A DNA stretch of 64,000 bases from Candidatus Auribacterota bacterium (lineage in GTDB: Bacteria > Auribacterota > Tritonobacteria > UBA1439): assembly GCA_026392035.1 (NCBI GenBank), contig JAPLCX010000108.1, positions 4,634 to 68,633 of the forward strand. Direction: 5' to 3'. Made by a program: the position numbers and the translations under genes. A model generated the notes under the pieces. It saw only the letters and a program-made list of their open reading frames with translations, was not told where the DNA came from and did not search any database. Below are positions 7,968-61,908 of the stretch, piece after piece (the stretch's first letter is position 1; every line of letters begins with the position of its first letter).

Positions 7968-8291
7968 TCAGATAACCGTGTCGAAAACCATCGCGATCAT
8001 CCGAAACGGCAGTGCCACGACATCCCCGATCAGGATGAAAAACCTCCCCACGATACTGTGGGATTCCTTCTCCTTTATGATCGTTGTCTCTTTGACTACC
8101 TTCCCGGGCTCTCCCGGCGTGGGCTCCGTTTTATAGACGGTTTCTTCCTTGGTGACAGACTTGGCAGATGAGCCGCACCCGGTCATGAGAAGCGACGCCA
8201 TGAAGATCACCACCACACCCAGGATTATCCCACGATGCCAGCCTGCCGTTGATCGCCATATATTCATTTCGCTCCTCTCTTTAGGCAACAA
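7968..8291 (-). CDS. Small lipoprotein (signal peptide with lipobox LLMTGC), unknown function
   Basis: Hydrophobic N-terminus ending in LMTGCGSS. Lys/Glu/Thr-rich mature part. Confidence 0.45.
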   Translation of the reverse strand: MLPKERSEMNIWRSTAGWHRGIILGVVVIFMASLLMTGCGSSAKSVTKEETVYKTEPTPGEPGKVVKETTIIKEKESHSIVGRFFILIGDVVALPFRMIAMVFDTVI

Positions 8292-8311
8292 CCCATAACG
8301 TGCAGCAATAG

Positions 8312-8728
8312 TTATTCCTCATGCCCTCCATGTTCTTCACGCTCTTCATGCCCTTTATGCTCGCCCTTGTGCCCCTTCGCGCATTTCTCGGACATCTTCT
8401 TATACATGGGGCATGCGGCCTGCATCTCCATCATCATTTTCTGCATACCTTCCATGTCCATTTTAATTTCCGCTTCCTTCTGCACATTCAGATCCTTGTC
8501 GTATTTAATGAGCTTATTGCCCGTCATCACCACGACGCCGCCGTCCGCGGTCGCGACGATCGACCGCTTCATCATCTTCTCAGCCATCTCGGCGTGCATG
8601 GGGCAGCAGTAGCCCATTCCCTCTTTCTCCATCGTGTGCAGCCATGCTTTTCCGTGACACTTCATTGGCCCGGCGCACCCCAGGCATACCATCGCCAATG
8701 CCACGCCTGCCGCGAGAACTCTTTTCAT
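8312..8728 (-). CDS. Secreted Met/His/Cys-rich protein, probable periplasmic metal (Cu/Ni/Co)-binding protein
   Basis: Start moved to internal Met (MKRVLAAGVALAMVCLGCAG signal peptide), which has a GGAGG RBS. The upstream 54 codons of the listed ORF are GC-rich read-through. Mature part has CHGK, CCPMH and a His-rich tail GHKGEHKGHEEREEHGGHEE. Confidence 0.55.
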   Translation of the reverse strand: MKRVLAAGVALAMVCLGCAGPMKCHGKAWLHTMEKEGMGYCCPMHAEMAEKMMKRSIVATADGGVVVMTGNKLIKYDKDLNVQKEAEIKMDMEGMQKMMMEMQAACPMYKKMSEKCAKGHKGEHKGHEEREEHGGHEE

Positions 8729-9023
8729 GCCTTCTTCCTCCCTCTTGACAGTTGCCTCCGCCCATCTCCTCACACACCCGGCGCCGGGCGTGTGCACCCT
8801 GCAATGATTCAAATGTTGTTGAATGTATGTGGCGCTGCGCGCGCACCTCCTTTCTCTTCTGCAGCACCTGAGCTTGAAAAGGTGTCCCAATATCTCTCGT
8901 GCTATATTTTAATACAGTTACCCCCGATTGGGGAAATCTTTTTGATGTGAATCATCGGGTGTGGTTCATGCGACGTACGCCGATAGCGCAATAATGACTC
9001 TTTCCTGCGCGAGGGGCCGTTGA

Positions 9024-10502
9024 TCACTGCACCCGCCCGAGGTAGTACTCCACCGGCGCGCGGTCGTCGGTGAGGACGGGCACGTCTGCCCCCACCTCGC
9101 TCTTCCAGAGGTGGGTCAGGTAGCGGTTCGTTTCCTCATCGGCGCTCTCCGGCGCGGGCTCGCGATTCGACTTCAGCGCCGCGAGAATGATGTTCTGTAC
9201 CTCGCGCCCGTCCTCCGGATCATCGACGGGAAAAAGCATGACGCGCGGGAAGACTTCCGCACAGGTGGCGTACTCCGCCCTGGTGAATCTCCCGTTCATT
9301 CCGTCGACGGCGCCGATGATATTCACGAGCAGCACGCCCCCCTCGGCCAGCATGCCGCTCATTCTCCGCGCTGCCTCAATTGTCGTGAGCTGATACGGCA
9401 GGCAGTTCGCGTCCCTGAACGCGTCGATAATGATCACGTCGTACCTGTTGCCGCTCCTGTTGAGGAAGGTTCTGCCGTCCTCGTGGTGGACGGTCAGGCG
9501 GGGGTTGTCCCGCAGATTGAAATATTTTCTGGAGATCTCTGTCAGCATCGGATCGATCTCCACCACGTCGATGCGCGCATCGGGATATCGCCTGAGAAAT
9601 TCTTTCGGGTAGGCGTAGGCCGCCCCGCCGATCATGAGTGTGCGTCTGAAACCGGTGGCGAAGTGCTCGGCGAGGCGGAAAAACTTCATGTAGTCGAACA
9701 CGAAATCCTCGCCGTCGAGGTACATGGCGGACTCCTGCCCGTAGGGATCCGTGGAGAGGGCGAGGATCGGCCTCCCCGTCACCTCGTCCGTGTCCCTATA
9801 TATCCAGACCCGGTTATAGGGAGTATCAATGTCGAGCATCACATCCCTCAGCCCTCCACCCAGCATGGAACCGCCGGCCGCCAGGAAGAGAAACAGTATG
9901 CCGGCCCTCGCCTTCCCGAGCCGGCCGCTGAACACCGCGAGGGAAAGAAGCCCAAGGACCGCCGAAGTCAGCAGGAGCAGACGCACGTTGCCAAGTAAGG
10001 GTATCAGGACAAATCCCGCGAGGAAGGTGCCGGTGATGCTTCCGATGGCGGAGAGGGCGTACAGCCTCCCGATGGCCGACCCCGAACTGGCGACATACCG
10101 TATTTTAAGTCTGGCCGCGTACGGGGAGACCATCCCCAGAAACACATTCGCCGGCGCAAAGAGCAGGAGGGCGCCGCACAGGGAGAGGGTTCCGTTGCCG
10201 CTGACCAAGGCATTCAGCGAGGAGAGGAGTTTATCTTTTAGGAGCGCAGTCAGCCCGACGCAGGAGGCCGCCAAGAATACCAGCAGAGAGAGGAGCCGCG
10301 CATCTGGCCGCCTGTCGGCGATTCTTCCACCCCACCAGTAGCCGATGCTCAGGCTCGCCAGGATCACGCCGACCAGATTAGTCCACACGTACAGCGACGT
10401 CCCCGCGTAGGGGGCGAGCACCCTGGAGCCCGTGAGCTCGAAGACCATGACCGCGGCACCGCAGACGAAAACCGCCAGTTCGCACGCCCACCTTCTCATC
10501 AT
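9024..10502 (-). CDS. Fused polytopic membrane domain / spermidine-synthase-like (PABS-type methyltransferase fold) protein
   Basis: ~7 predicted TM helices at the N-terminus, then TLMIGGAAYAYPKEF ... RIDVVEIDPMLTEISRKYF ... YDVIIIDAF, resembling the spermidine synthase core. Confidence 0.7.
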   Translation of the reverse strand: MMRRWACELAVFVCGAAVMVFELTGSRVLAPYAGTSLYVWTNLVGVILASLSIGYWWGGRIADRRPDARLLSLLVFLAASCVGLTALLKDKLLSSLNALVSGNGTLSLCGALLLFAPANVFLGMVSPYAARLKIRYVASSGSAIGRLYALSAIGSITGTFLAGFVLIPLLGNVRLLLLTSAVLGLLSLAVFSGRLGKARAGILFLFLAAGGSMLGGGLRDVMLDIDTPYNRVWIYRDTDEVTGRPILALSTDPYGQESAMYLDGEDFVFDYMKFFRLAEHFATGFRRTLMIGGAAYAYPKEFLRRYPDARIDVVEIDPMLTEISRKYFNLRDNPRLTVHHEDGRTFLNRSGNRYDVIIIDAFRDANCLPYQLTTIEAARRMSGMLAEGGVLLVNIIGAVDGMNGRFTRAEYATCAEVFPRVMLFPVDDPEDGREVQNIILAALKSNREPAPESADEETNRYLTHLWKSEVGADVPVLTDDRAPVEYYLGRVQ

Positions 10503-10703
10503 CTATCCCCGTAGACGTTTTTCATAACACTTTTGTCAGGAGTAAGATACAACCTAAATATTTCTGGCGCGCAGAAGGGATATTTAGTTTGCATCGATCT
10601 CTCCTGCAGCGAGATGCGTACAACGTCTACATAACCGTCCGGCAGCTCCTGAACATAGCGGCATCTTCGATTATGCCCAGGACTCGTGCTGCGTTAGCAA
10701 GGA

Positions 10704-11945
10704 TTATTGACTGATAGAACAGGTCCCCCCTCCTGTTTTTGTTGTATATGCTTTCTTGTTGTAGGGAAGCCTCATCAATAGCATGCCCATAAGGCAGTTG
10801 TTCGTTATGCCCGCGAAAATGAGCCCGCATGAGATCAGGATTGAAATCCAGATGAACGCGCCATGTACAAACCTCGCCAGTACTATGCCAAGCAATACCA
10901 CACTTCCTGCAATAATTCTGACCTGCCGCTCCAGCGATATGGCAGGCTCGCCTTTGATCACAGGCAGTTTCTCCTTTTGCCAACGCGCAATGCCTCCGTC
11001 CATTACCTTTACAGAATGAATGCCGGATTGCAGCAGCATATCGGCTGCCATGGGAGAGCGATTCCCGCTATGGCAGAAGACCACGTAGGTGTGCCCCGCC
11101 CGGCTCAGGTCTTCTACTTTTGAGGCAAGCGTATCGATGGGGATATTGAGCGAATGATCAATGTGGACCTCATTAAATTCCAGCGGAGAGCGAACATCCA
11201 GTAAGATAACCCGAGGGTCTCTGGATGCCAGCGCTCGCGCATCTTCAGGTGAAACCATTTCCAGAAGTGAGGCTTCACCCCTTTGGTTCACACGTATAAT
11301 GTTGTCGATGTTGAACGGTTTGGGGAGCTGTTTTGAACGGGCATTTTTAACAAATGATTCCTTGCTCGTTTCCTTGAGGAAGGGGTTGCTTTTCTTTTCC
11401 CTGGCGATAGTTGAAGATCTATTCCCGTGGTAATCGTGCGCGGGGAACAGCATGGTTTCATCGGGTAATGCTTTCAGCCTCTGCAGCGTATCAAACATAG
11501 CTTCAGGAGAGCCGTTCTGGAAATCCGTGCGCCCCACGCTGCCGATTAAAAGCACATCTCCGGTAAATAATCTGCCTTCTCCATAGATGCTCATGGCATC
11601 ATCGGTATGACCGGGCGTATATATCACCTTGCAGCGGCATGAACCGAAGGCTATTTCCTCATTGTCCTTCAGTCTCCTGTCCGCCACACTGGATATGGCC
11701 TTTTCATGCATTAAAACCGGGGCCCTGTACCTCTTCTTCAGCACCGCGGCCAGAGAGAAGTGGTCCGCGTGCGTGTGCGTATCCATTATATATTTGAGAC
11801 CCAGCCGCTTCTTTGTCAGATATCCGGCATATTCCTCCAGCAGACTTATGTGCGGATCAATGATGACCGCCTCGTTCCGGGAACTTAAGATATACGAGTA
11901 GCAGCTGCCGGCGCTGAATTGCTTTGACGCAAAATCCTTGCTCAT
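10704..11945 (-). CDS. MBL-fold metallo-hydrolase (persulfide dioxygenase-like) fused to a rhodanese domain and a C-terminal small membrane domain
   Basis: HTHADH zinc motif, downstream His/Asp ligands, rhodanese active-site loop CHSGNRS, and a terminal hydrophobic DUF2892-like segment. Confidence 0.8.
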   Translation of the reverse strand: MSKDFASKQFSAGSCYSYILSSRNEAVIIDPHISLLEEYAGYLTKKRLGLKYIMDTHTHADHFSLAAVLKKRYRAPVLMHEKAISSVADRRLKDNEEIAFGSCRCKVIYTPGHTDDAMSIYGEGRLFTGDVLLIGSVGRTDFQNGSPEAMFDTLQRLKALPDETMLFPAHDYHGNRSSTIAREKKSNPFLKETSKESFVKNARSKQLPKPFNIDNIIRVNQRGEASLLEMVSPEDARALASRDPRVILLDVRSPLEFNEVHIDHSLNIPIDTLASKVEDLSRAGHTYVVFCHSGNRSPMAADMLLQSGIHSVKVMDGGIARWQKEKLPVIKGEPAISLERQVRIIAGSVVLLGIVLARFVHGAFIWISILISCGLIFAGITNNCLMGMLLMRLPYNKKAYTTKTGGGTCSISQ

Positions 11946-12052
11946 ACGTCATCCTCCTTTCCGCAGTTGATTGTATCAAGATACGCGTGGCGGATGAATT
12001 GAGTAAGTATATTACAATTGCCGTCGTGATTTTATCGGATTATCATTGCATC

Positions 12053-12310: not shown

Positions 12311-12462
12311 TAAAATCAACCTGCGGGCAGGATACCGGTCTTCCTGAGATTGCGTGTCCTGGGGCGTGGGAAGTGGGATCGTGACAGAATGATGGAGAGG
12401 AAAAGCGCGAAAGTGGACAAGTCGATAATCAGGGACCCGAAGGAGGCAGATTCCAGGAATAT

Positions 12463-12690
12463 CCCCAGGGGCAAGCCGGGGATGACACCGGACGAGTGGA
12501 GCGATCTTCTGTACTCGGAGGTGACCCACAAGGAAATTGCAAAAATGGGAGAGGAGTATCAAAAGAGCCTGAATGACGAGAGGCAAAGGCAAGAGAAGAT
12601 ACGCGTGGCACCCCGAAGAGCATCGAAAGGCACGGATTCGGCCAAGAAATTGGGCGGTGAGGGGAGAATACCGGCCTCCCTGAGAACTCG
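12463..12690. repeat. ~225-bp dispersed repeat, copy 1; contains a conserved Lys/Glu-rich small ORF (MTPDEWSDLLYSEVTHKEIAKMGEEYQKSL...)
   Basis: ~90% identical to 14529-14752. The same small ORF and the same antisense ORF start (MWVTSEYRRSLHSSGVIPGLP) are present in both copies. Confidence 0.7.
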
Positions 12691-12819
12691 CGTTATAGGG
12701 GAAATGGCGAGGCCGGTTTTTGAGCGGGCCAGCTAGTCCTGACGGAAGGGGAAGACCTGAATGACGCCTTGTGGGATGTCATGAAAGAAGGAAGATAGTT
12801 GGAAGCAGGGAGATAAAAA

Positions 12820-13023
12820 ATGGCTACTGGAAACCTGAAGGTGTCATGTAGGCGCTGTAATGCTTGCGGAAAAGTGACCAAGTGTGAAAGGAATGGCATG
12901 ATCTGGGGGTGCGGTGATCTGATCATGGTCTTTATGACAGTGGGCCTCTGGTGCATCGCTCGTTTTATCGTTAATGAAGTAATAAATCCCTGGCGCTGTT
13001 CTGAATGCGGGAAGCGAGTCTGA
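12820..13023 (+). CDS. Small zinc-ribbon membrane protein (CxxC ... TM helix ... CxxC), 67 aa
   Basis: CRRCNACGK ... hydrophobic LIMVFMTVGLWCIARFIV ... CSECGK. AGGGAG RBS 6-8 nt upstream of the ATG. Sits directly upstream of the Sel1 gene. Confidence 0.4.
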   Translation: MATGNLKVSCRRCNACGKVTKCERNGMIWGCGDLIMVFMTVGLWCIARFIVNEVINPWRCSECGKRV

Positions 13024-13037
13024 AACATAGGCGATAT

Positions 13038-14345
13038 ATGACCCGAAAAAATATATCCATCTTTTGCGCCGTTTTTATTTTTGCGATATTCATGCTGCAC
13101 TTTTTACCATTCTCCAAAGATAAATCCTTGAATAATGCCGGACAAAAGATTGTCTCCACCACTAGAAGTCTTTTAGATTCAAATGAAATGCAGGTTGGTA
13201 AAGCTGCTTATGACCGCAAAGATTACGTAGCAGCCTTCCAAAACTTCTCCAAGGCCGCAAAAAAAGGTGATGCAGAAGCACAATATAAACTCGGGTTGAT
13301 GTATGACGAAGGCCACGGTGTGCCGAAAAATTATGTCGAGGGCGCCAAATGGTACCGCAAAGCCGCAGAACAGGGCTTTGCACCGGCGCAGTCTAATCTC
13401 GGGTTTATGTATGTCAACGGCCAAGGCGTGTCGCAGGATTATAGTGCAACGTATGTCCATGGCCAAAGCGTGTCTCCAGATTATGTTGAAGCAGTCAAAT
13501 GGTACCGCAAAGCCGCAGAACAGGGCTTTGCAGAGGCGCAAAATAATCTCGGGGCAATGTATTACAAAGGCCAAGGCGTGCCGCAGGATTACACAGTGGC
13601 CGCCGACTGGTACCGCGCAGCCGCAGAGCAGGGCAATGCAATTGCACAGTTGAATCTAGGGTCAATGTATTACCACCACTTGGGTGTGCCAAAAGATTAC
13701 ACAGAGGCATTCAAATGGTACCACAAAGCCGCGGAACAGGGTGTTGCACAGGCGAAGGCTATGCTCGGGTCAATGTATTACACAGGCCAAGGCGTGCCGC
13801 AGGATTACACAGAGGCCGCCAAATGGTACCACAAAGCCGCAGAACAGGGTGTTGCACAGGCGAAGGCTATGCTCGGGGCAATGTATTACACAGGCCAAGG
13901 CGTGCCGCAGGATTACACAGAGGCCGCCAAATGGTACCGCAAGGCAGCGGAACAGGGCGTTGCAGAGGCACAGGCTTGGGCCAGACGTAGAAAATGGACG
14001 ACAAATGATCTAGCAATTTTATGTGTGGGAAAAACGAAACAAGAAATTCGTGGAGCATTTGGAGAACCGGATAATACCCGATGGGCAACCATGCGGCGGC
14101 TGGATTTATCAAAATATGATCCTGAGTATCATGATCAAAGTAAAATGGCATTCAGATGGATTTATAAAAATATGGATATCAACAATCTGGATCTCGGGAC
14201 AAAAGAAAGTGTTCTCTGTATCTGGTTTTTCTATAGAGAGGGATACATTGCTACCAGTATAAAGACTATGAATTCATCAACGTATAGGGATTTGCTGCAT
14301 GTAGAATTTGAAAATGGTTATGGTTCCGGTCCCAGCATCTTCTGA
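13038..14345 (+). CDS. Sel1-repeat (TPR-like) protein with N-terminal signal/anchor
   Basis: At least eight tandem Sel1 units of the form [35 protein letters not shown]. Start placed at the internal Met before the hydrophobic segment. Confidence 0.8.
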
Positions 14346-14374
14346 CTATTGATTTCCGTAAGGACGATGACTTC

Positions 14375-14525
14375 ATGATCCTGGCCTTGATCAACAACAA
14401 GGGGGGGACGGGGAAGACCACGTCCGCCGTTTCGCTGGCCGCCGCGCTGGCCATGAAGGGAAACAAGGCGCTGCTGGTCGATCTGGACAGTTAGGCAAGC
14501 GCCAGCCTGTCCATGGGGATCGAGC
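14375..14525 (+). pseudogene. parA/soj-like ATPase gene remnant ([39 protein letters not shown]-stop-ASASLSMGIE), truncated by repeat copy 2
   Basis: Deviant Walker A KGGTGKTT and DLD(P)Q motif. In-frame TAG after codon 39. Homology ends where the 225-bp repeat begins. Confidence 0.55.
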
Positions 14526-14528
14526 GGG

Positions 14529-14752
14529 CGCGGGGGCAAGCCGGGGATGACACCGGACGAGTGGAGCGATCTTCTGTATTCGGAGGTGACCCACAAGGAA
14601 CTTGCGAAAATGGGAGAGGAGTATCAAAAGAGCCTGAAGGACGAGAAGCAAAAGCAAGGGAAGAGACGTGCGGCACCCCCAAGAGCACCGAAAGGCACGG
14701 ATTCGGCCAAGAAATTGGGCGGTGAGGGGAGGATACCGACCTCCAAGAGATC
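14529..14752. repeat. ~225-bp dispersed repeat, copy 2
   Basis: See copy 1. This copy interrupts the parA-like reading frame. Confidence 0.7.
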
Positions 14753-14826
14753 GCGCCCTAGAGTTTAGGGGTGGCTTATTGACGAGGGAGGGGAAGCAAT
14801 CTCACCTCGCATTAGCTGCGGAGCTA

Positions 14827-15474
14827 ATGAAAAGGGAGGGAACTAAATTGGATGCGCTGCAGAAACATTTTCATGATGAGGCTGCATCATTTAAAAAGGC
14901 GGGCTTCGCTTCAATTCAATGGTTGGCCTGTGGCGATGAGCGCACGTGTTCTACATGTAAGGCGATGGATAAAAAGGTATTACCGATAGAAGATATGCGC
15001 CTTGTTATTCAAAAACATCACTGCGAAAACAAAGAAGATGGATGCCGTTGCACGTTTGTACTCCCAGATGAAGAATCCAGCCCAATAGATAATGCACAAT
15101 CTAAAGGTGATAAATCTGTTCCCGACTTAAACAAAGCCCCCGTGATGGATTTTATGTCTGCCATCGAAGAGGCGAAGAAAAAAGTGGCCGATCCAAAATG
15201 GTGGAGAGAACAAGGCTGTAAATGGGGCGATCATGCAATGGAAAGCTTCGGGAAGCTAATGGATCCAAAATATTCTTTATCGAATGAGGAAGCAAAGAGG
15301 ATCATCATTGAATTCCCCGCTTTCCATTCCATAATAATGGAATCCAATATCGAAATTAACGATGAGACAGTGCCTAAGGTTATCCAATTGATAAGGGAAC
15401 AGCTTGACCCGCAGAAATGGGCAAATCACGCTCCGGGGAGTCTCCGGGACGCTGGGCAAGAGGGTAAAACATGA
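14827..15474 (+). CDS. Phage Mu F / SPP1 gp7-like head-morphogenesis domain protein (standalone)
   Basis: [31 protein letters not shown] matches the MuF-domain hallmark (D-E-R-T-C-x-x-C-x-x-x-D-G-K-V). Start set at the first Met after the repeat. The longer listed ORF begins inside repeat copy 2. Confidence 0.55.
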
Positions 15475-16517
15475 CTTATACGCCGAAGTACACTATAACA
15501 GACGCCACGGCGGTAGCATTGACCGCTATCGAGCGGGCGAGGGGCTTCCTGGAGGCCGCGAAGCTCTCCGAAGACTGGGTAGCCGGGATGCAGCGGCGGG
15601 CGCTTGTCCTGGAGGCCCATCATACTACCCATATAGAAGGGACGCACCTCACCCTGGAGCAGTCGGAGCGGATACTCGCCGGTAAATCCGTCCCGGAGGC
15701 AAACCCCGATGATGCCCGCGAGCTTCTGAACTATCGGGATGCCTTCGAGCTCGTGGCGGAATACCTCGGGAGTGGGGAGCCCGTCACCGAGGCGCTCATC
15801 CGGCAGGTACACAAGCGCCTTGTGATCGGCGTGCGCGGCGACTCGGGAGCTCCAGGGGAGTACCGGAGGGTGCAGAACTACGTCGTGAACAGCCGCACCA
15901 AAGAGGTTGTGTACACTCCTCCACCTCCCCAGGATGTGCCGCCCATGATGAAAGAGCTTATCGCGTGGCTCGGGGAGGCCAAGCAGATGAATCCCGTCCT
16001 TGAGGCCGGTGCCGCTCAGTTTCAGCTCGTCCATATCCACCCATTTGTGGACGGGAACGGCAGGAGTGCCCGGCTCCTCTCGACGCTCTGCCTTTACCGG
16101 AAAGGGTACGACTTCAAGCGCCTCTTTACCATCAGCGAATACTATGACCGGGACCGGGCGGCCTACTACCGGGCAATCCAGAGCGTCCGGGCCAGCGGCA
16201 TGGACCTCACCAAGTGGCTGGAGTATTTCGCGGAGGGACTCGCCGTGCAGATGCGGGAGGTACAGGAGAAGGGGGAGCGCGTCATTCGGGCGGACGTGCT
16301 TGCCCGAAAGCACCGCCTCTCCGACCGGCAACGGGCCGCCCTCGGGCACGCCCTGGAGCACGGCTTACTTGCCTTACAAGACTACGCCGCACTATGCCCG
16401 AAGGCTAACCGCAGGACACTACAGAGAGACCTCAAGGCTATGGTGGACAAAGGCCTTCTCATTCAGGAGGGCTCAGGCCCGGCAGCGCATTACCGCATGG
16501 GGAAGGTTAAGAAGTGA
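15471..16517 (+). CDS. Fic-family protein (AMPylase-type), class II with N-terminal inhibitory motif
   Basis: Active site [16 protein letters not shown] (HxFx[D/E]GNGRxxR). N-terminal TTHIEG fits the (S/T)xxxE(G/N) auto-inhibition helix. Start overlaps the upstream stop (ATGA). Confidence 0.85.
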
Positions 16518-16562
16518 AATCACGACATAATCACGACACGAATCACGACAGGATCGCGACAT
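16518..16562. repeat. Four tandem ~11-bp repeats (AATCACGACAN) immediately after the fic stop codon
   Basis: aatcacgacat aatcacgacac gaatcacgacag gatcgcgacatgg, read directly. Confidence 0.6.
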
Positions 16563-16805
16563 GGAAGATCACAGGCAATTAGCCGCGTACCGCCCTTGTG
16601 TTGAGCGGATCAATTCAAACTGGGCCGCTTTCTCTGGCAAGAGGAAGGAACGGCTGCAGCAGCACGCTCTGATCGGCCCTGTCACGGAGAAGGCGACCGA
16701 GAACCTGAGCAGCTCGGCAGAACGGGGGAGGTGATAGGAACCGAAGGAATATAAGAATATCGTAGATTGGAATTAACACGCCATGAACACATCAGGGAGG
16801 AATGC

Positions 16806-17168
16806 ATGACACTCACCGTATCAACGAGCGAAAAAGAGACCGGCATCGTGACGATATCCCCGGTCGGCGTCATTGACGCGAGCACGTACGCCGTTCTCGA
16901 GACGCAGGTGGATTCGGTGCTCCGCACGCCGCCGAGGGCCCTCATATTCGACATGGCGGGCGTCACCTACATCAGCAGCGCCGGTGTGCGCGTAGTCCTC
17001 AAAGCCAAGAAATACCTCGCGCGGGACAAGGGGAAGGTGATGATGGTGAACCTTCAGCCGAGAGTAAAAAGAGTGTTCGATATCATCAATGCGCTCCCTC
17101 CCCAGCAGCTATTCGCGAGCATCGAAGAGCTGGATGCCTACCTTGACCGGATGCAGAAAGGCATCTAG
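16806..17168 (+). CDS. STAS-domain anti-sigma-factor antagonist (SpoIIAA/RsbV-like)
   Basis: Length, conserved region YISSAGVRVVLKA and the phosphorylatable Ser context fit. GGGAGG RBS before the internal ATG. Precedes a PP2C/HATPase gene. Confidence 0.7.
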   Translation: MTLTVSTSEKETGIVTISPVGVIDASTYAVLETQVDSVLRTPPRALIFDMAGVTYISSAGVRVVLKAKKYLARDKGKVMMVNLQPRVKRVFDIINALPPQQLFASIEELDAYLDRMQKGI

Positions 17169-46295: not shown

Positions 46296-47411
46296 TCACC
46301 GCCCTCCATAATAATAGTGCGCAGCGCAGGCGCCCTCGCGTGACACCATGCACGGTCCGACCGGATGCGCGGGCGTGCACGCCGATCTAAAGAGCGCGCA
46401 CTCGGTCGGTGTGCGCTTCCCTGCGAGGACCTCGCCGCAGCTGCAGCCCGCCGGTTCGGATACGGCACCGATCTCGAAATCAATCAGCGCGTCTGCGTCG
46501 AAACGGCTAAATTCGCCCGTGAGCCTTACCCCGCTGTTTCTGATCTCCCCCAGACCCCTCCATGTCGAGTCGCATTCGGTGAATACCGAAGCGATGAGAT
46601 CCTGTGCCCGCTGATTGCCGCGGGGTGATACAAACCGCGCGTACTGGTTTTTAATCGCCGGTTCCCGCCGGCTGATCATGTCCAGCAGGAGCAGGATCCC
46701 CTCCAGCAGGTCAACTGCCTCAAAGCCGGCGATCACGCCGGGGACATGATACCGCTCCGCTATGAAACTGTACGCGCCCTCTCCTATGATGGAGCTCACA
46801 TGGCCGGGCAGAATAAAGCCATCTATGCGGATATCGCCAGAAGACAACAGGGCGTCAACGGCGGGGGGAATCAACTTGAACGCCGTGAGGAGATAGAGGT
46901 TTGTTATCCGGTGTGCCGCGGCCCGTTGCACGACGGAGGCGAACAAGGGGATCGTCGTCTCAAAACCAACCCCAAAGAGGACCACATCCGTGCGTGGCTC
47001 ATTTCTGGCGAACTCCAGGGCATCAAGGGGGCTGTACATGATCCTCACGCGCGCCCCCCGATTCGCTCGCGCCGACTCCAGGGTGTCAGATACCCCGGGA
47101 ACTTTGAGCATATCGCCAAAACAGAATAGGACGGTGTCCTTCCTGCAGGCTAGTCCGATGGCGCTCTCCATCGATTTCAGAGGGGTGACGCACACGGGGC
47201 AGCCCGGCCCCGACGCGAGATGAATGTGCTCCGGCAGCCCCTGCCGTACGCCGGTGGCGAAGAGTGCCATCGTGTGGGTTCCGCAGACTTCCATGAGGGT
47301 CGCTTGGGTTTCGCGGGAGCGGATTTCCCCCAGGAGCCTGCGCGCGATCTCAGGATTTCTAAAATTGTCCAGGAGGCTCGCTGAGCTGTTTGAAATACTC
47401 GATGGTTTCAA
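46296..47411 (-). CDS. hypD: Hydrogenase maturation factor HypD
   Basis: MEVCGTHTMA (CGxH) and GPGCPVC motifs. FeS-cluster Cys motifs near the C-terminus. Confidence 0.85.
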   Translation of the reverse strand: MKPSSISNSSASLLDNFRNPEIARRLLGEIRSRETQATLMEVCGTHTMALFATGVRQGLPEHIHLASGPGCPVCVTPLKSMESAIGLACRKDTVLFCFGDMLKVPGVSDTLESARANRGARVRIMYSPLDALEFARNEPRTDVVLFGVGFETTIPLFASVVQRAAAHRITNLYLLTAFKLIPPAVDALLSSGDIRIDGFILPGHVSSIIGEGAYSFIAERYHVPGVIAGFEAVDLLEGILLLLDMISRREPAIKNQYARFVSPRGNQRAQDLIASVFTECDSTWRGLGEIRNSGVRLTGEFSRFDADALIDFEIGAVSEPAGCSCGEVLAGKRTPTECALFRSACTPAHPVGPCMVSREGACAAHYYYGGR

Positions 47412-47589
47412 GGGCTTCTTCCCTGTTGAGCGTGTTAATCGCGAACCCCGCGTGCACGATCACAAAATCCCCGACCATGGCGTGTTCGATCAGGTCAAGG
47501 GCCACTCGTTTTCTAACCCCACCGAAGTCAACGAGCGCGTGTCCGTCAGCAATCAGTTCTATGATCTCACCGGGGACCGCCACGCACAT
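47359..47589 (-). CDS. hypC: Hydrogenase maturation factor HypC
   Basis: Starts MCVAVPGEI (conserved Cys2). The C-terminal overlap with hypD (~50 nt) suggests hypD may start at a later codon. Confidence 0.8.
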   Translation of the reverse strand: MCVAVPGEIIELIADGHALVDFGGVRKRVALDLIEHAMVGDFVIVHAGFAINTLNREEALETIEYFKQLSEPPGQF

Positions 47590-48243
47590 TTCCATCTCCC
47601 GCTGTAAAAGAAGTACTCTCAACTTCACCATATCACACTCGGGTTTGGCAAGAGAATTGTTGAGGAGGGATCAACAGGATCATGCAGCAGGACGCGCGGG
47701 CGTTGTGGTGTCATTGCGATTCCGGCTCAGCGGGACGAAGCAGTCCGACACCGAGGGCGTCACCCCAAACAGGGTGAGGGATCGCACATAGGTCGCCACT
47801 GCTGCCTGCGGCAGCCTCGCGACGCTTCGCGGGTCGCCTTCGGCCCGCCACACACAGCCGCTGCCGCTTCGGGGGAGGAAGCTCGTTCCACTCCATCGCA
47901 GCTACTGTGTCTTTGGAAACACCACTGCTGTATGCATCACTTCACTCACTACGCAGGTAATGTAGAGGCAATACTTGACATTCTATGAGAATAGGAATTG
48001 CCAATAAACCTTTTTTAATTAGATATGTCAATATTCTTATTTCAGTAGATATATCCTTTCTCATATATAACCACTTAATAGCTATATCTTACTCCTAAAG
48101 AACAAGTAGCGTAATACATCTACCTGTTCCCATCCATGCGCCTTTGCCCGGAGCCTTGACAACTGCCCAAAATTAAGCTAAAATTCGAGTGAGCGAGAGG
48201 GCAGGGATGGAAGGAAGCTCGCTCTCAAAGGAGCGGCAGGACG

Positions 48244-50769
48244 GTGAAGGCGCACAGGTGGTTCCTCCTGATTCATGCGATGAGCGCGGCGGCGCTCTCG
48301 TCGTTCCTTTTTATCTCACCTCTGTCTGCCGCGCCGGACGCTCCTTACGTCGAGGGTGAGATTCTCGTCAAATACAAAAGCTCGACTTCCCATTTGCGCA
48401 TGAGCAGCATCGAGAAGACGGCCGGCCTGGTTACAAAAGAAGAAATCCCCGCGCTGCGCATCAAGCGGGTAAAAATTGAGTCCGGGATGTCCGTCGAGGA
48501 GTGCATTGAAGAATACCACAGGCTCGCCGGCGGCTCGATAGAGTACGCTGAACCCAACTATATCCTGAACGCTGATCTTCTCCCCAACGACCCTGACTTC
48601 AATCAATTGTACGGTTTGCGCAATACCGGACAGAACGGCGGTGTGCAGGGGGCCGATGTTGCCGCCGCCGAAGCGTGGGATACCGCCACGGGCGGCCCCA
48701 TTGTGGTCGCGGTCATCGACACGGGAGTTGACTACACGCATCCAGACCTCGCGGCCAATATGTGGAAAAATGAGGGCGAGATACCGGATAACGGCATTGA
48801 CGACGACGGGAACGGCTATGTTGATGATTACCGCGGCTGGGACTTCTGCAACCATGACAATGACCCCTACGATGATCACTCGCACGGCACGCACTGCGCG
48901 GGCATCATCGCGGCCGTGGGCGACAACGGCATCGGGGGCGTCGGCGTGTGCTGGAAGGCGAAGATCATGCCGTTGAAGTTTATGGGGGCGGGGGGCTCGG
49001 GATCGACGGCCGAAGCCGTGAATGCGATCCTCTACGCGACCAAGATGGGCGCGCGGGTAATGAGCAACTCGTGGGGCGGCGGCGGTTGCTCTCAGGCGCT
49101 CAGGGACGCCATCCAGGTTGCCAACGATGCGGGGGTGATATTCGTGGCGGCGGCGGGAAACTCCGCGAGCGACAACGATCTCACCGCGCACTACCCCTCG
49201 AGCTACGATTGCAAAAATGTCATCGCCGTGGCGGCCACTGATAATTATGATCTCCTCGCGTCATTCTCATGCTACGGGCTCACATCGGTGGACATCGCGG
49301 CGCCGGGGGTCGCGATCCTGAGCACCACCCCCGGCGGGGGCTACGCGTCATACAGCGGGACATCGATGGCCGCTCCTCATGTCGCAGGCGCCGCCGCGCT
49401 CGAGTGGTCGCACACGCCCGCAAAAAGTCACACCCAGATTATTTCAGATATTCTCAGTGGGGCGACGCCACTCTCGGCGCTGGATGGCAAGGTGGTCACC
49501 GGAGGCCGTCTCAATCTTCAGCAGATGCTCAACCCCGAGAACGACACGGTGGCGCCGGCCCCGGTCACAGACCTGAGCGCGGTGGGGACGAGGATGGCGC
49601 GGGTGACACTGAGCTGGACGGCGACCGGAGATGACGGCAACACGGGGAAGGCCAGCGCTTATGACCTGCGTTACTCCCTCGATACGATCACGGACGCGCG
49701 CTGGGACGCGGCCCGCCGCGCCTCCATTGCGGTCAATCCACAGAGCGCGGGTTGCACGGAAGAGGCAACGGTGACCGGACTATCGCCGGGCACCTGTTAC
49801 TATTTTGCCCTCAAGGTGAAGGACAACCGCAGGAACAGCTCGGCCATTTCAAATGTGGCGGCGGCGACAACCTCCTCAGGAACGGTGGTCCTCGATGACA
49901 GCGTCGAGGGCGGCGACAACGGCTGGTCGCCGACGGGCCTCTGGCACCGTACCACGCATAGCGCGTCCAGCGCTGTCAGCTCCTGGTACTATGGGCAGGA
50001 GGGGCTCTGGAGCTATGACACGGGGGTCGCAAACAGTGGCACGCTCACGTCGCGGAAGATAGATCTGAGCGCCTATAACGACGCCCTCCTCACCTTTAAT
50101 CATTTCAGAACTGTGGAGGCGTACCAGGGTTCGTACGATATCTGTGCGGTAGAGGCATCGCGTGACGGAGGGGCCAACTGGGAGCGGCTGATGGAGCGTA
50201 ATTCATCGAGCCCGGCGGTGTCCGGGTGGACGAGCTCCGGCGCGGTGATGCTCACGGGCTATGCCGGAGGGAGCGTGCTCCTCCGTTTCTCGTTTGACAC
50301 GGTGGACGCCACCTCGAACGGTTATGAGGGTTGGTATGTTGACGACATCCGCATCATGGCGGAGGATTACAAAGTAGAGCAACCGGATCTGTACAATCAC
50401 CACGTGGAGCTCACTCTGAACGGAGAGAGCTTCCGGTGCGGCGACAAGCTCTATCTCTCCGCAGTCGTGAAGCGCGGCTGGCTCTCTCCCCATACCGTGT
50501 GCGATGCATACCTCGCCGTATCGCTGCCGAACGGACGCGAGCTCTTCCTCACGCGCACTCACGCGCTGTCCGGAAAAGCGCTCCCCCTTATGAGCAACTT
50601 CGAGGTGAGGGACATGAGGGTTACCATGGGCCCCTTCGTCATCGCCTCCGGTCTCGCGAGCGGCAGCTACTCCGTGCGCGGCGTGCTCACCCCTTCCCAG
50701 AAGCGGGCGGTAAAGGGGACGAGCCTGATGAGCAACCTCTCCCAGGTGAGCTTTACGATCACTCCGTGA
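48244..50769 (+). CDS. Secreted S8-family (subtilisin-like) serine peptidase with I9 propeptide and C-terminal beta-sandwich/FN3-like domains
   Basis: Catalytic triad motifs VAVIDTGVD, HGTHCAGIIAA and GTSMAAPHVAGAAAL. Signal peptide. GTG start preceded by an AAGGAG RBS. Confidence 0.9.
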   Translation: MKAHRWFLLIHAMSAAALSSFLFISPLSAAPDAPYVEGEILVKYKSSTSHLRMSSIEKTAGLVTKEEIPALRIKRVKIESGMSVEECIEEYHRLAGGSIEYAEPNYILNADLLPNDPDFNQLYGLRNTGQNGGVQGADVAAAEAWDTATGGPIVVAVIDTGVDYTHPDLAANMWKNEGEIPDNGIDDDGNGYVDDYRGWDFCNHDNDPYDDHSHGTHCAGIIAAVGDNGIGGVGVCWKAKIMPLKFMGAGGSGSTAEAVNAILYATKMGARVMSNSWGGGGCSQALRDAIQVANDAGVIFVAAAGNSASDNDLTAHYPSSYDCKNVIAVAATDNYDLLASFSCYGLTSVDIAAPGVAILSTTPGGGYASYSGTSMAAPHVAGAAALEWSHTPAKSHTQIISDILSGATPLSALDGKVVTGGRLNLQQMLNPENDTVAPAPVTDLSAVGTRMARVTLSWTATGDDGNTGKASAYDLRYSLDTITDARWDAARRASIAVNPQSAGCTEEATVTGLSPGTCYYFALKVKDNRRNSSAISNVAAATTSSGTVVLDDSVEGGDNGWSPTGLWHRTTHSASSAVSSWYYGQEGLWSYDTGVANSGTLTSRKIDLSAYNDALLTFNHFRTVEAYQGSYDICAVEASRDGGANWERLMERNSSSPAVSGWTSSGAVMLTGYAGGSVLLRFSFDTVDATSNGYEGWYVDDIRIMAEDYKVEQPDLYNHHVELTLNGESFRCGDKLYLSAVVKRGWLSPHTVCDAYLAVSLPNGRELFLTRTHALSGKALPLMSNFEVRDMRVTMGPFVIASGLASGSYSVRGVLTPSQKRAVKGTSLMSNLSQVSFTITP

Positions 50770-50889
50770 CGTGTTCGATCAGGTCAATGGCCGCTCGTTT
50801 TTTAACCCCCTCGAAATCAACGATCGCGTGCGCGTCAGCCGGCAGTTCTATTATCTCACCGGGGATCGCCACGCACATTTCCCTCTCCC
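50770..50889 (-). pseudogene. hypC-like 5' remnant (MCVAIPGEIIELPADAHAIVDFEGVKKRAAIDLIEHVT...) with its upstream leader
   Basis: 50770-50945 is ~85% identical to 47472-47650, which is the hypC start plus leader. The frame runs straight into the antisense of the S8 gene. Confidence 0.6.
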
Positions 50890-51670
50890 GCTGTAAAAAT
50901 ATTTCTCTCAACTTCACCATATCACGCGCAAGTTTTGCAAGAGAATTGTTGACTGTACCGTCCCCGTTTTTGTGAAAGGGACTATTGCTTCATCTCCCAA
51001 TTCAGAAACAGGTCATTCCCGCGGAAGCCTGCCTATGCCGGAGCGGCTTCGCGCAGGCAGGCGGGAATCCAGTCCTGTACAGTAAATTGTGTATTTCAAC
51101 GCTGGATGCCTGCTGGAGTTTACCCCTGCGAGAGCAGGGGCAGACATGACACGATCACGTCTCTGGAACAAAAAGTATATATTCAGTTGACGATATCAGT
51201 ATCGTACTTGATGCCAGCACATTGGGTATTTCAAGCCTGAAATTTCGGGGAAAGTCCTGGGATGGGTTTAGCTTACGGCGTGGAAGGATCAGATTTGCTG
51301 ACGAAGCAGCTTCACACGAAGATCGGAGTGGATGAGAGGCTGACAGGTCGACCGGAGTTGATCAGTCGGAGCGAACGAGCGTTAGCGAGTGAGCGGAGAT
51401 CCCGAGTGGAGCGAGAGATCATTCCCAGATTAACAGAGCGTAGCGTACGACTTATTGTCTGGGGGGTGACCCTGATTATTTCAGAGACTGATGGGAAAAG
51501 GCATCACCGCCGTATCAACTGTCAAGGATAAAGACTTGACCCCAAATGTCTCACGCTCTACTCGATGGTGAGGAAGGTTTCTGCGATCGGCCCGAGCGGA
51601 GCGACCCGCCGCGGAAGTCAAGCAGGCTCGTGTACCCGGAGGCTCCCGCCGTGCTCCTCTCGGGAATCCC

Positions 51671-57620: not shown

Positions 57621-57740
57621 ATGGCAAGACCACTGAGGATTGAATATCCGAGGCATGGCACCATGTCACAAGCCGCGGGAACGAGCGGTGGGAGATATCC
57701 CGGGACGACAAGGACAGGAAGCGGAGCCGCGGTGACGAAT
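57621..57740 (+). pseudogene. Decayed N-terminal fragment of a RAYT/IS200-like HUH transposase gene (MARPLRIEYP, then frameshift, then GAWHHVTSRGNER)
   Basis: MARPLRIEYPGAxYHVTSRGNER is the characteristic N-terminus of this transposase family. Here a 1-nt frameshift and a stop follow after ~38 codons. Preceded by AAAAATCAGGGTCAAACCT at 57561-57580. Confidence 0.5.
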
Positions 57741-57834
57741 AATCACATGCGTCTTCAGAAGCAGATGTTAAAAGACCGAAGATTGGCGAAACGGGTGAAA
57801 CAGATTCACGACAAACTTGTCAGTGTACAGTAGA
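57723..57834. repeat. ~110-bp repeat, left copy; inverted partner at 61797-61908
   Basis: GGAGCCGCGGTGACGAATAATCACATGCGTCTTCAGAAGCAGATGTTAAAAGACCGAAGATTGGCGAAACGGGTGAAACAGATT... is ~90% identical to the reverse complement of 61797-61908. Confidence 0.7.
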
Positions 57835-57974: not shown

Positions 57975-58721
57975 TTGACTTTGATAGACGTTATGGATAA
58001 TGTACTTGCTAATCTGAACAGAAAGATTGGAGAAGCGATTAGAACCTATTGGCTCACGCGGGAGGGCCAGACTAAAAGGCAGAAAGAAGCAGGACGAGTG
58101 GATCAGGGGGCTCGAAGCGCCGTAACGGACGGCGCCCAAATGGATGGTTTTATCTCCCTGATTACTGAAATACTTTGCAACGCTGGAATTGATTCTCGGC
58201 ACATATTCAGGAAAACATGCATAGAATTACCCGGCTTTTTCAGGCCCACAAAGGAGTGGGATCTCCTTGTAGTAAGGGATGGGCAATTGATATTGGCTCT
58301 CGAAGCGAAATCTCAAGTAGTCCCCTCGTTTGGGAATAACTTCAACAATCGAACCGAGAAAGCTATGGGGAGCGCTCTGGACTTGTGGACTGCCTTTAGA
58401 GAAGGCGCCTTCAATAAAACGGTTAAGCCATGGTTAGGGTATCTTTTTCTCCTAGAGGATTGTCCTCAATCTAGGCATGCCGTAAAAGTGCGCGAACCAC
58501 ATTTTGAAGTATTCCCCGAATTCAAAAATGCCTCTTATGGCAAGAGATATGAGCTATTCTGCCGCAAGCTGGTACGAGAAAGGCATTATTCTGCTACTGC
58601 CTTCTTAATGGCATCAAGAGCTGGTGGACTCAAAGGAAACTACGAAGAACCGTCAAAAGATTTAACCTTTGAGCTATTTGCCCGTTCGCTGATCGGCCAA
58701 GTAACTGCTTTTGGGAAATAG
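57975..58721 (+). CDS. Putative type II restriction endonuclease (PD-(D/E)xK fold), 248 aa
   Basis: Candidate catalytic core ...EWDLLVV...LILALEAKSQVV (D ... E-A-K, EcoRI-like spacing). Gene sits 8 nt upstream of a DNA MTase in a low-GC island. No family-level match could be made by eye. Confidence 0.45.
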   Translation: MTLIDVMDNVLANLNRKIGEAIRTYWLTREGQTKRQKEAGRVDQGARSAVTDGAQMDGFISLITEILCNAGIDSRHIFRKTCIELPGFFRPTKEWDLLVVRDGQLILALEAKSQVVPSFGNNFNNRTEKAMGSALDLWTAFREGAFNKTVKPWLGYLFLLEDCPQSRHAVKVREPHFEVFPEFKNASYGKRYELFCRKLVRERHYSATAFLMASRAGGLKGNYEEPSKDLTFELFARSLIGQVTAFGK

Positions 58722-58729
58722 GCTTAATC

Positions 58730-59677
58730 ATGATACAAGCCACAAGTCTAGAGAATATAGTTACAACACATCGCCTTATCCAAGGTGATGCCAGAGAAAT
58801 GTCATATATCCCGAACGAATCAATCCATCTTGTGATTACATCACCACCTTACTGGACATTAAAGAGATACAATGAAAATCCAAGACAGTTAGGGCATGTT
58901 TCCGGATACGAACAATTTCTTAATGAGCTACAAAAGGTATGGACCGAGGTTTATAGAGTGCTTGTTCCCGGAAGCAGGCTAGTTTGCGTGATCGGGGACG
59001 TATGCCTTTCCAGAAAGAAGTTTGGGAGGCATGTAGTTGTTCCTCTGCATGCTGATGTTTGCGTGATGTGCAGGAAGATTGGCTTTGACAATCTTAATCC
59101 TATCATCTGGCATAAAATTTCGAACGCTGCTTTTGAAGCGAACGACGGATCAAAATTTTTAGGCAAACCATATGAGCCTAATGCGATTATTAAAAACGAT
59201 ATCGAGTTTATTCTGATGCAAAGGAAGCCGGGGGGCTATAGGAAGCCCACGGAAGAGCAACGCCGGCTAAGCAAAATAGGCAAGAACGAATTCAACGAAT
59301 GGTTCCGTCAGTTCTGCACCTTAACGGGAGCTTCTACAAAAAATCATCCAGCACCTTTCCCTTTAGAGTTAGCTAATCGTTTGGTGCGGATGTTTTCATT
59401 TTGGGGGGATACGGTCCTAGATCCTTTCTGTGGGAGCGGTACTACAATGCTGGCTGCCATGAGGTGTCACCGCAATAGCATAGGGGTTGAAATAGATAGA
59501 GAGTATTGCCGTATGGCCGCGCAGCGATTGATTAAGGAAAATCAGGATTTTTTCTCTAAAACCCGTTTGGAGTTCAAAAAGCAGATTAATAGTAAAGACC
59601 AGGGCTTGATTCTCCATGAGGATAAAGCTTTATATGTGGCGCACAAGAAAAAACAAAAAATGAAAGCCGCATCATAA
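58730..59677 (+). CDS. Beta-class amino-DNA methyltransferase (motif IV SPPY before motif I DPFCGSGTT); likely N4-cytosine (or N6-adenine)
   Basis: VITSPPYW (motif IV) at aa ~38 and VLDPFCGSGTT (motif I) at aa ~263. This is the ParB/beta-group order typical of type II N4C/N6A MTases. Confidence 0.85.
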   Translation: MIQATSLENIVTTHRLIQGDAREMSYIPNESIHLVITSPPYWTLKRYNENPRQLGHVSGYEQFLNELQKVWTEVYRVLVPGSRLVCVIGDVCLSRKKFGRHVVVPLHADVCVMCRKIGFDNLNPIIWHKISNAAFEANDGSKFLGKPYEPNAIIKNDIEFILMQRKPGGYRKPTEEQRRLSKIGKNEFNEWFRQFCTLTGASTKNHPAPFPLELANRLVRMFSFWGDTVLDPFCGSGTTMLAAMRCHRNSIGVEIDREYCRMAAQRLIKENQDFFSKTRLEFKKQINSKDQGLILHEDKALYVAHKKKQKMKAAS

Positions 59678-60186: not shown

Positions 60187-60789
60187 ATGGAATACAAAAT
60201 AAATAGAGACGGGCTTTTAACGGAGATGGGGATCTGGAACGGGTTTCTTGGCCGTTCGGTGAGATTGATTGCCTGCGGCGGCACAGGGCTTACTCTTCTG
60301 GGAGTGAAAGATTCAACAAAAGACATAGATTTGATGGTGCCAGACGAATGGGAGCATAGTTATCTCCTGAGCATTTTGAAGCAGTTCGGTTACAAGCAGG
60401 TAACCGGTTATGGATGGGCTAGAGGCGGGGGATTCGTGTTCGATCTCTTCCGTGGAAACAGAATACACACCACGGAATTGCTGGAATCCCCTCTGGAAAA
60501 GGGCAATCATCTCATGTTCAAGGAATACAGCCGGATCTATCTTGGAATTCTCAATTACTATGACCTGATTATAAGCAAACTGTTCCGTGGCACATCCGTT
60601 GACTTTGATGACTGCGTGGCCTTAGTGCGTGTCAAACATCGCGAGGTTGATTTTGGCAGGCTATGTAATCGCTATCGAGATACTGCCGCATATGATGTGT
60701 CCGAGATAAATGTGTTGAAGAACTTGGACACTTTCATTCACCTGATTAGAAAAGAGGGGCTCTACAATGACAACACGCTCACTTCGTGA
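60187..60789 (+). CDS. Nucleotidyltransferase-fold protein (Pol-beta superfamily minimal NTase), 200 aa
   Basis: IACGGTGLTLLGVKDSTKDIDLMV fits the hG[GS]x9-13[DE]hDL NTase signature. Confidence 0.55.
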   Translation: MEYKINRDGLLTEMGIWNGFLGRSVRLIACGGTGLTLLGVKDSTKDIDLMVPDEWEHSYLLSILKQFGYKQVTGYGWARGGGFVFDLFRGNRIHTTELLESPLEKGNHLMFKEYSRIYLGILNYYDLIISKLFRGTSVDFDDCVALVRVKHREVDFGRLCNRYRDTAAYDVSEINVLKNLDTFIHLIRKEGLYNDNTLTS

Positions 60790-61747: not shown

Positions 61748-61796
61748 GATCATGTGTCGGGACGCGAGAGGATACTCAAAACATCAGGGTCATCTC

Positions 61797-61908
61797 TACA
61801 CTAACAAGTTAGTTGTAAATCTGTTTCACCCGTTTCGCCAATTTTCGGTCTTTCAACATCTGCTTCTGAAGACGCATATGATTATTCGTCACCGGAGCTC
61901 CGCCAATC
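61797..61908. repeat. ~110-bp repeat, right copy (inverted relative to 57723-57834); itself flanked by a 14-bp inverted repeat ACATCAGGGTCATC / GATGACCCTGATGT (61781-61794 / 61970-61983)
   Basis: Read directly on both strands. Confidence 0.7.

Follow-up and report, generated by a model that had tools for sequence, protein, structure and literature searches.

The 64-kb stretch of Candidatus Auribacterota contig JAPLCX010000108.1 analysed here (the window) contains two copies of a direct repeat that carry part of a small gene and lie upstream of a gene for a Fic protein. The copies, at positions 12468-12698 and 14533-14763 of the forward strand, are offset by 2065 nucleotides (nt) and align over 231 nt without gaps and with 21 mismatches, corresponding to 91% identity. 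This confirms, with slightly refined coordinates, the approximately 90%-identical direct pair of a preliminary description that had been made from the sequence alone, as well as its statement that the copies bracket a zinc-ribbon gene and a Sel1-repeat gene (12820-13023 and 13038-14345). Exact blocks of 43-47 nt are common to both copies, and one exact block of 44 nt has two occurrences in the window, where 100 shuffles give an expectation of 0. When the flanks of the repeats were aligned, nothing significant was found past the 231 nt, except for a partial third copy of a short motif (M0, see below).

Copy 1 is part of an intact gene of 115 codons on the plus strand (12389-12736), annotated in GenBank as the hypothetical protein NTX71_11490 (identical to P0001), and extends from codon 27 to the 3' end of this gene. 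The encoded protein comprises a conserved core, PGMTPDEWSDLLYSEVT, and a tail that is basic and disordered. When the 115-amino acid (aa) open reading frame (ORF) was used as query in an exhaustive HMMER search against 1.84 billion representative proteins, a single true homologue was identified, P0003, which has 84 aa and is 44% identical (pairwise E-value 2e-13). The alignment with P0003 takes in the K.D.SII..P residues that are encoded 5' of the repeat, and it places the methionine of MTPDEW at an internal position (PGMTPDE[WY]SDLL). Therefore, this methionine, which had been taken as the start of an ORF shared by both copies, lies in the interior of a longer gene and does not start it. The usual C-terminus of the family is ...KAGR, and a TAG-to-GAG change in the window lengthens the ORF into a downstream motif, with the duplicated stretch running from codon 27 to approximately 45 nt beyond the normal end of the family protein. 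A word-indexed search of 5.8 billion proteins matched the 115-aa protein to itself alone, and nothing meaningful was found for it in Pfam, PHROGs, PADLOC, or NCBIfam. From a 3-sequence alignment, AlphaFold predicted a single helix (residues 34-73) with disordered flanks (mean predicted local distance difference test score 62.8, predicted template modelling score 0.25), which does not provide a searchable fold.

The genes for NTX71_11490 and P0003 differ at proportions of 0.68 of synonymous (pS) and 0.37 of non-synonymous sites (pN), with corresponding values of 0.73 and 0.15 in the core. These differences comprise 45 at third codon positions vs 29 and 28 at the other positions, and the ratio of non-synonymous to synonymous substitution rates (dN/dS) is about 0.3. 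Because synonymous change far exceeds non-synonymous change between the lineages, the small gene represents a real protein gene under selection. The constraint was seen only between lineages, whereas the comparison of copy 1 with copy 2 proposed in the preliminary description yielded a dN/dS of 0.90 by the Nei-Gojobori method (NG86; 5 synonymous and 16 non-synonymous changes), with mismatches at codon positions 1, 2, and 3 in a ratio of 7:9:6 and thus no overall constraint. Copy 2 lacks codons 1-26, and a 73-codon ORF stays open in it from the internal methionine (14547-14768). Both repeats correspond to part of a single small protein-coding gene and are paralogous to each other; copy 1 belongs to a genuine gene, and copy 2 is a 5'-truncated pseudogene fragment. 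The earlier question of whether the charged ORF in each copy is a gene or an accident of the repeat is thereby answered separately for the two: homology to P0003 and constraint identify the first as a gene, while the second is a beheaded fragment.

The small gene is linked to a Fic gene in a second lineage. In 6 contigs, the gene for P0003 precedes a Fic gene of 347 aa at a distance of 76 nt, and in one of these (L016), the Fic protein is 87% identical to that of the window at the aa level and 84% at the nt level, with nucleotide homology spanning window positions 15459-16553. The Fic gene of the window (15471-16517, plus strand) encodes a SoFic-like class II Fic protein (Pfam Fic, 9.1e-20, and Fic_N; PADLOC SoFic, 3.3e-63, spanning model positions 52-342 of 361), with an active-site motif of the HxFx(D/E)GNGRxxR type and an N-terminal inhibitory (S/T)xxxE(G/N) motif, TTHIEG. 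Since it scores far below the cut-off of the NCBIfam SoFic equivalog (68 vs 550 bits), it is not an orthologue of Shewanella oneidensis SoFic. The last approximately 30 nt of the repeat, which we call motif M (M1, 12658-12690, in copy 1; M2, 14723-14755, in copy 2), are also found 3' of the P0003 stop codon in L016. The order of small gene, approximately 30-nt motif M, and SoFic-type Fic gene is thus shown to be a module that is uninterrupted in another lineage.

Between the two copies in the window, a Cys-rich (CxxC...CxxC) membrane ORF of 67 aa, the zinc-ribbon gene (12820-13023, plus strand), matched no family at a significant E-value. It is followed by the Sel1-repeat gene (13038-14345, plus strand; Pfam Sel1, 2.7e-74), which encodes 7 repeats and a C-terminal domain of low guanine-plus-cytosine (GC) content and carries internal 108-nt repeats. 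The third gene is a parA/soj pseudogene stump of 53 codons (14375-14533, plus strand) that starts with an ATG at 14375, contains the deviant Walker A motif KGGxGK[ST] (as KGGTGKTT), and matches Pfam AAA_31 (E-value 1.2e-16, profile positions 3-54 of 177) and CbiA (1.1e-13) over residues 2-53. An in-frame TAG at codon 40 (14492-14494) takes the place of the Q that is conserved in DLDPQ. The similarity to ParA continues past this TAG up to residue approximately 53, aligning with residues 9-60 of 257 in Soj (1wcv) and 17-67 of 276 in another Soj. It is therefore lost at 14533, where copy 2 begins, and this copy is butt-joined out of frame to the first 53 parA codons. No full-length ParA ORF (approximately 210-280 aa with Walker A' and Walker B) was found, given the TAG at codon 40 and the end of homology at approximately codon 53. 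The truncation of parA at the edge of copy 2, as previously proposed, is hence confirmed by alignment to Soj and AAA_31, and the fragment, which also harbors a nonsense codon, is a stump and not a complete short gene.

Further downstream, a gene of 215 aa (14827-15474, plus strand) with low GC content encodes a fragment resembling MuF/SPP1 gp7 proteins, and its stop codon overlaps the Fic start (ATGA). It sits exactly between M2 and a 12-nt Fic leader that is common to L016. The matches are partial and below family thresholds: Phage_Mu_F was hit at 8.8e-06 with 26.9 bits vs a cut-off of 29.6 (profile positions 58-111 of 112), TIGR01641 at 29.3 vs a cut-off of 39.65, and the PHROG models of minor head proteins, 500-700 aa long, over approximately 90 residues. 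Look-ups for the products of the Sel1, zinc-ribbon, copy-2, parA stump, and MuF-like ORFs, as well as for an 85-aa GIY-YIG protein encoded upstream, returned no record.

All of these genes lie in an accessory block of 4466 nt (12322-16787). The contig L007, from a related metagenome-assembled genome (MAG), has 117 nt in its place, between the GIY-YIG gene and genes for a STAS protein and a dCache-HAMP-SpoIIE sensor, which identifies the block as accessory. The flanks of L007 are 79-88% identical to the window, and 79-83% at the nt level in the comparison that defines the island, with homology stopping at 12321 and resuming at 16788 in both blastn and tblastx. In the window, the island is bordered on the left by the GIY-YIG gene (11999/12053-12310; 85 aa) and on the right by the STAS gene (about 16806-17168), and neither an integrase nor a tRNA gene was found at its borders. 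Its GC content is mosaic (0.38-0.64), the small gene with the repeat copies, the parA stump, and the Fic gene being GC-rich (0.54-0.64) and the zinc-ribbon/Sel1 pair and the MuF-like gene GC-poor. Compared with plasmids and phages, only the Sel1 repeats of the island matched at the DNA level (64-71%). Of the earlier proposal that the block is an eroded remnant of a plasmid or phage-like element, the foreign-looking mosaic island stands, based on its absence from L007 and its GC range, while no evidence for a plasmid or phage origin was found. A second indel relative to L007 is located just upstream of the GIY-YIG gene (8045-11998), where the window encodes a spermidine-synthase-like membrane protein (9024-10502, minus strand) and an MBL-fold/rhodanese protein (10704-11945, minus strand) that are both absent from L007.

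The third, partial copy of motif M, M0 (12322-12354, plus strand; 28-33 nt, 76% identity), forms the very beginning of the island on its left side. Its local alignment score of 31 compares with a shuffle mean of 18 (standard deviation 2.4; z approximately 5.5), and the 3 copies of the motif in the window compare with 0 in shuffles.

Taken together, the best overall explanation, and one that we consider probable, is that the repeats are paralogous partial copies of a Fic-linked small gene that are not mobile and that arose from the capture of foreign DNA with duplication of the target. For the step of origin itself, our preference is more tentative and stands at somewhat below an even chance: the zinc-ribbon/Sel1/parA' fragment may have been captured behind the small gene together with a 231-nt target duplication. 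The ancestral island would have had the order M0, small gene, M, and Fic. A foreign fragment of 1.8 kb, carrying the zinc-ribbon ORF, the Sel1 gene, and the 5' end of parA, would then have been captured just behind the small gene, with 231 nt of the target duplicated, either by single-crossover integration of a circularised fragment with a homologous piece or by repair-mediated capture. Such an event would leave the intact gene on the left and the truncated copy towards Fic; the parA-bearing DNA would be the inserted or rearranged part and the repeat the duplicated target. The low-GC MuF-like fragment would have been inserted separately between M and Fic. The repeats would have no function as an element, and their sole expected activity would be RecA-type loop-out of the 2,065-bp unit.

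Two observations favor insertion with duplication. Removal of one repeat together with the insert restores the order small gene, M, (MuF), and Fic, which is that observed in L016. Furthermore, this architecture recurs approximately 35 kb away in the window, at the hypC locus: a 189-nt direct repeat (86%; 47475-47663 and 50764-50952) is formed by an intact hypC (47359-47589, minus strand, with hypD downstream) and a 39-codon 5' fragment of hypC with its upstream region, which flank a 3.1-kb insert carrying a gene for an 841-aa subtilase (48244-50769).

The strongest alternative, which we regard as nearly as likely although still on the unlikely side, assumes 2 complete units of small gene and motif, in the order small1, M1, zinc-ribbon, Sel1, full-length parA, and further DNA up to small2, M2, and Fic, from which one deletion fused parA codon 53 to codon 27 of small2. 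The paired modules could have originated from tandem accretion of related elements. A single junction would then account for the truncation of both genes, and an identity of 91% suits related but distinct modules. The 3 copies of M, of which M0 is a stub at the island edge, suggest several small gene-M units eroded by deletions, and parA', the repeat copies, and Fic are alike in being GC-rich, whereas zinc-ribbon/Sel1 and the MuF-like gene are GC-poor. However, deletion and fusion require at least 2 events, a lineage with 2 full small genes was not found in the searches, and the simpler ancestral state of small gene, M, and Fic is the one that is observed. Moreover, the hypC/subtilase locus demonstrates that this architecture arises without tandem modules.

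It should be noted that several points weigh against the combined reading of non-mobile paralogous copies and capture with target duplication. With the present data, its origin step is indistinguishable from deletion and fusion. One insertion-duplication leaves M0 unexplained, which hints at more than one small gene-M unit in the past, and the copies, at 9% divergence, must either have evolved in place for a long time or stem from a donor copy that was already diverged. The core of copy 2 is near-unchanged, with 2 synonymous and 2 non-synonymous changes in 31 codons, so that copy 2 may retain residual function. Further copies of the repeat may exist elsewhere in the same MAG, as the count within this genome covers the 64-kb window, and the junction of parA and copy 2 was not recovered in independent (Logan) assemblies. 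Finally, close relatives of the Fic protein in 2 other contigs (L024, 85%; L025, 82%) have no small gene upstream, and the small gene is therefore not an obligate partner of Fic but associated with it in a lineage-limited manner.

A different role for the repeat ends was also considered. SoFic is a toxic AMPylase that acts as a defence protein, and a small adjacent antitoxin encoded downstream, AS1 (47 aa), was recently reported, while the regulation of SoFic systems is still open (PMC12249575). By analogy, the small protein is probably a modulator of the Fic toxin. The more far-reaching idea that NTX71_11490 and P0003 represent an undescribed, fast-evolving antitoxin or regulator of SoFic-type Fic proteins, with motif M as both a cis element and a hotspot of cargo insertion, seems improbable to us, and marginally more so the idea that M acts as a cassette-like recombination or insertion hotspot, with the repeats as conserved ends of exchangeable units. 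The cargo directly 3' of M does vary (small1 after M0, zinc-ribbon/Sel1 after M1, MuF after M2, and Fic in L016), M is kept across lineages in which the small proteins are only 44% identical, and all 3 copies in the window lie at borders of differing composition, with M0 exactly at the island border. However, a screen of the island genes found no recombinase gene or domain, the right island border lacks M, and there are 4 examples of M in total. Moreover, no stable, shared, or conserved hairpin was found in the M regions (z -0.3 to -1.8), and no GTTRRRY core site was seen by eye in a check for integron attC sites. If partner and hotspot were both real, the repeated small gene-M ends would record modular shuffling of a defence locus and not a one-off scar. 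A coincidence of M2 plus 2065 with position 16788, the right island border, was rejected, since this border is fuzzy and the observation was made post hoc.

We also considered an assembly artefact, in which two strain variants of one locus were joined in series, and regard it as very unlikely. The source is a contig of a MAG annotated as Candidatus Aureabacteria bacterium, the shared exact blocks of 43-47 nt exceed small k-mers, and the parA'/copy-2 junction was not independently recovered. However, Logan contigs assembled independently from more than 13 sequencing runs stop at both copies exactly at the limits of shared 31-mers, the pattern that two coexisting contexts of similar depth would produce: 5 terminate at window position 12497, the last 31-mer with a copy-1-specific base, and 2 begin at 14702, the first with a copy-2-specific base, one of them being common to 13 samples. 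One independent Logan contig covers 11808-12865 at 100% identity, including the junction of copy 1 and the zinc-ribbon gene, and a chimeric path would still need a genuine parA'/repeat junction in the reads. These assemblies argue that both repeat contexts coexist in the sampled populations.

Mobility or dispersal of the repeat, as originally proposed, was not supported by any feature tested. The window contains 2 copies. Back-translated pattern scans with tblastn confirmation covered 185,579 species-representative genomes and the JGI metagenomes and revealed no relative, with P0003 as the later exception; the repeat was likewise absent from plasmid and phage collections at the DNA and protein levels (including tblastn). 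Two candidates were discarded: a metagenome match (L023) had only the word MTPDEWSDL in common, within an unrelated ORF, and a match to the 1830-aa P0002 was due to a low-complexity repeat. Of the finding that the preliminary description had set against its own view, only two copies within a larger segmental duplication, the first part thus applies, while no larger duplication was found. No terminal inverted repeats (TIRs) were found, the best end-to-end inverted match of 7-8 comparing with a shuffle mean of 6.4-6.5 and maximum of 10-11, nor was there a target-site duplication (TSD), the bases flanking the repeat being unrelated. The predicted RNA folds of the copies were no better than those of shuffles (z -0.1 and -0.6), and neither sigma-70-like nor intrinsic-terminator-like sites were found within the repeats or in the adjoining sequence; in the whole window, there were no Rfam matches and no tRNA or tmRNA genes (ARAGORN). 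Thus, an inserted element of the kind of a miniature inverted-repeat transposable element (MITE) or other dispersed mobile repeat that interrupted parA, as the preliminary description had it, is hardly credible and already refuted on the defining features tested: parA homology does stop exactly at the left end of copy 2, but there are only two copies anywhere searched and neither TIR nor TSD, the approximately 200 lost parA codons are not present beyond the far side of the repeat, and the unit corresponds to an inner part of a conserved coding gene, with homology passing the left end of the unit in copy 1.

Additional repeats were observed around the Fic gene and elsewhere in the window. Four tandem ATC[AG]CGACA units with a period of 11-12 nt begin 2 nt after the Fic stop codon (16519-16561) and are followed by a 57-aa ORF (16561-16734). 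Three such units are found at the same place in L016 (6658-6689) and L024 (5058-5089), whose Fic proteins are 87% and 85% identical, and they are absent in the 82% Fic relative. This array could be operator-like or iteron-like, or tied to a downstream antitoxin, as for E. coli SoFic and AS1. For 2 of the 6 P0003 contigs (L017 and L018), the Fic gene is cut to 136 aa and a 29-nt downstream motif follows it directly, suggesting that a variant of the module in that population arose by deletion. A 29-nt stretch at window positions 51516-51544 matches, at 93%, the sequence just 3' of Fic (L016 6697-6725; L017 2879-2907). Furthermore, a 110-nt inverted repeat (91%; 57721-57830 and 61794-61903) flanks an XhoI-type restriction-modification pair (57975-58721 and 58730-59677) and a DUF6036 nucleotidyltransferase pair (60187-61423), where a 41-nt direct motif with the core AAAAATCAGGGTCAAACCT occurs 3 times at module borders (57556, 59775, and 61774; approximately 2 kb spacing). 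A 57-nt direct repeat (88%; 1303-1359 and 1452-1508) reflects a second copy of the first 19 codons of an 825-aa N6-methylase/S-subunit fusion gene; this copy lies 149 nt upstream, and an ORF6N-domain gene (744-1316) ends within it. Finally, an element of approximately 140 nt with GTCAT...ATGAC ends (51012-51151) has a 73% match in a different Auribacterota MAG (L006, 369-487) and may be a genuine small dispersed repeat.

The arrangement is an ordinary rearrangement scar. Its one lead of modest novelty is the linkage of a SoFic-type Fic gene to a small gene that is rare and is followed by a conserved motif. For annotation, this means that the copy-2 ORF and the parA stump are pseudogene fragments that do not qualify as a partition system or mobile element, while the 115-aa hypothetical protein is a genuine gene. 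With target duplication as its origin, the case would show how, in the genome of an uncultured member of the Auribacterota/Aureabacteria, a small island of the defence type grows as foreign fragments are captured and long stretches of the target are duplicated. In addition, the case provides a SoFic-like Fic toxin with a candidate partner that can be tested.

Compared with known systems, the locus most resembles Campbell-type insertion-duplications and partial duplications in genomic islands, in which an intact and a truncated target gene lie in direct orientation around foreign DNA, the ends of the duplicate are arbitrary relative to gene structure, and the repeats can loop the insert out. 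It differs from them in the 9% divergence of its copies and in the 33-nt M0, which is left unaccounted for, and neither a donor circle nor a vector is known. MITEs and repeats of the repetitive extragenic palindromic type share with it the size of approximately 230 nt and a copy abutting a broken gene, but here there are no TIRs, no TSDs, two copies only, and a coding content. Although the N-terminal 53 residues of the parA stump, with their deviant Walker A motif, align well to Soj ATPases, the stump lacks approximately 200 residues and has a nonsense codon, and is a pseudogene and not a working partition gene.

FicT/FicA modules such as VbhT/VbhA are class I Fic toxin-antitoxin systems with a small gene directly upstream of Fic. 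The small gene described here is likewise directly upstream of and co-oriented with Fic, but its product has no conserved (S/T)xxxE(G/N) motif, and this Fic protein has an inhibitory helix of its own. In the alignment of the 115-aa protein with P0003, the motif is not conserved, a similar stretch, SLNDER, being present only in the window copies and ending in R or K. With respect to SoFic and AS1 (PMC12249575), AS1 has 47 aa and is encoded downstream, whereas the small gene encodes 84-115 aa and lies upstream, and its product, known here from sequence, is unrelated to any described family and found in two lineages only. However, the Fic protein of the window fits the PADLOC SoFic model and has the class II inhibitory motif, and as in that system, a small neighbouring gene could plausibly modulate a toxic Fic protein.

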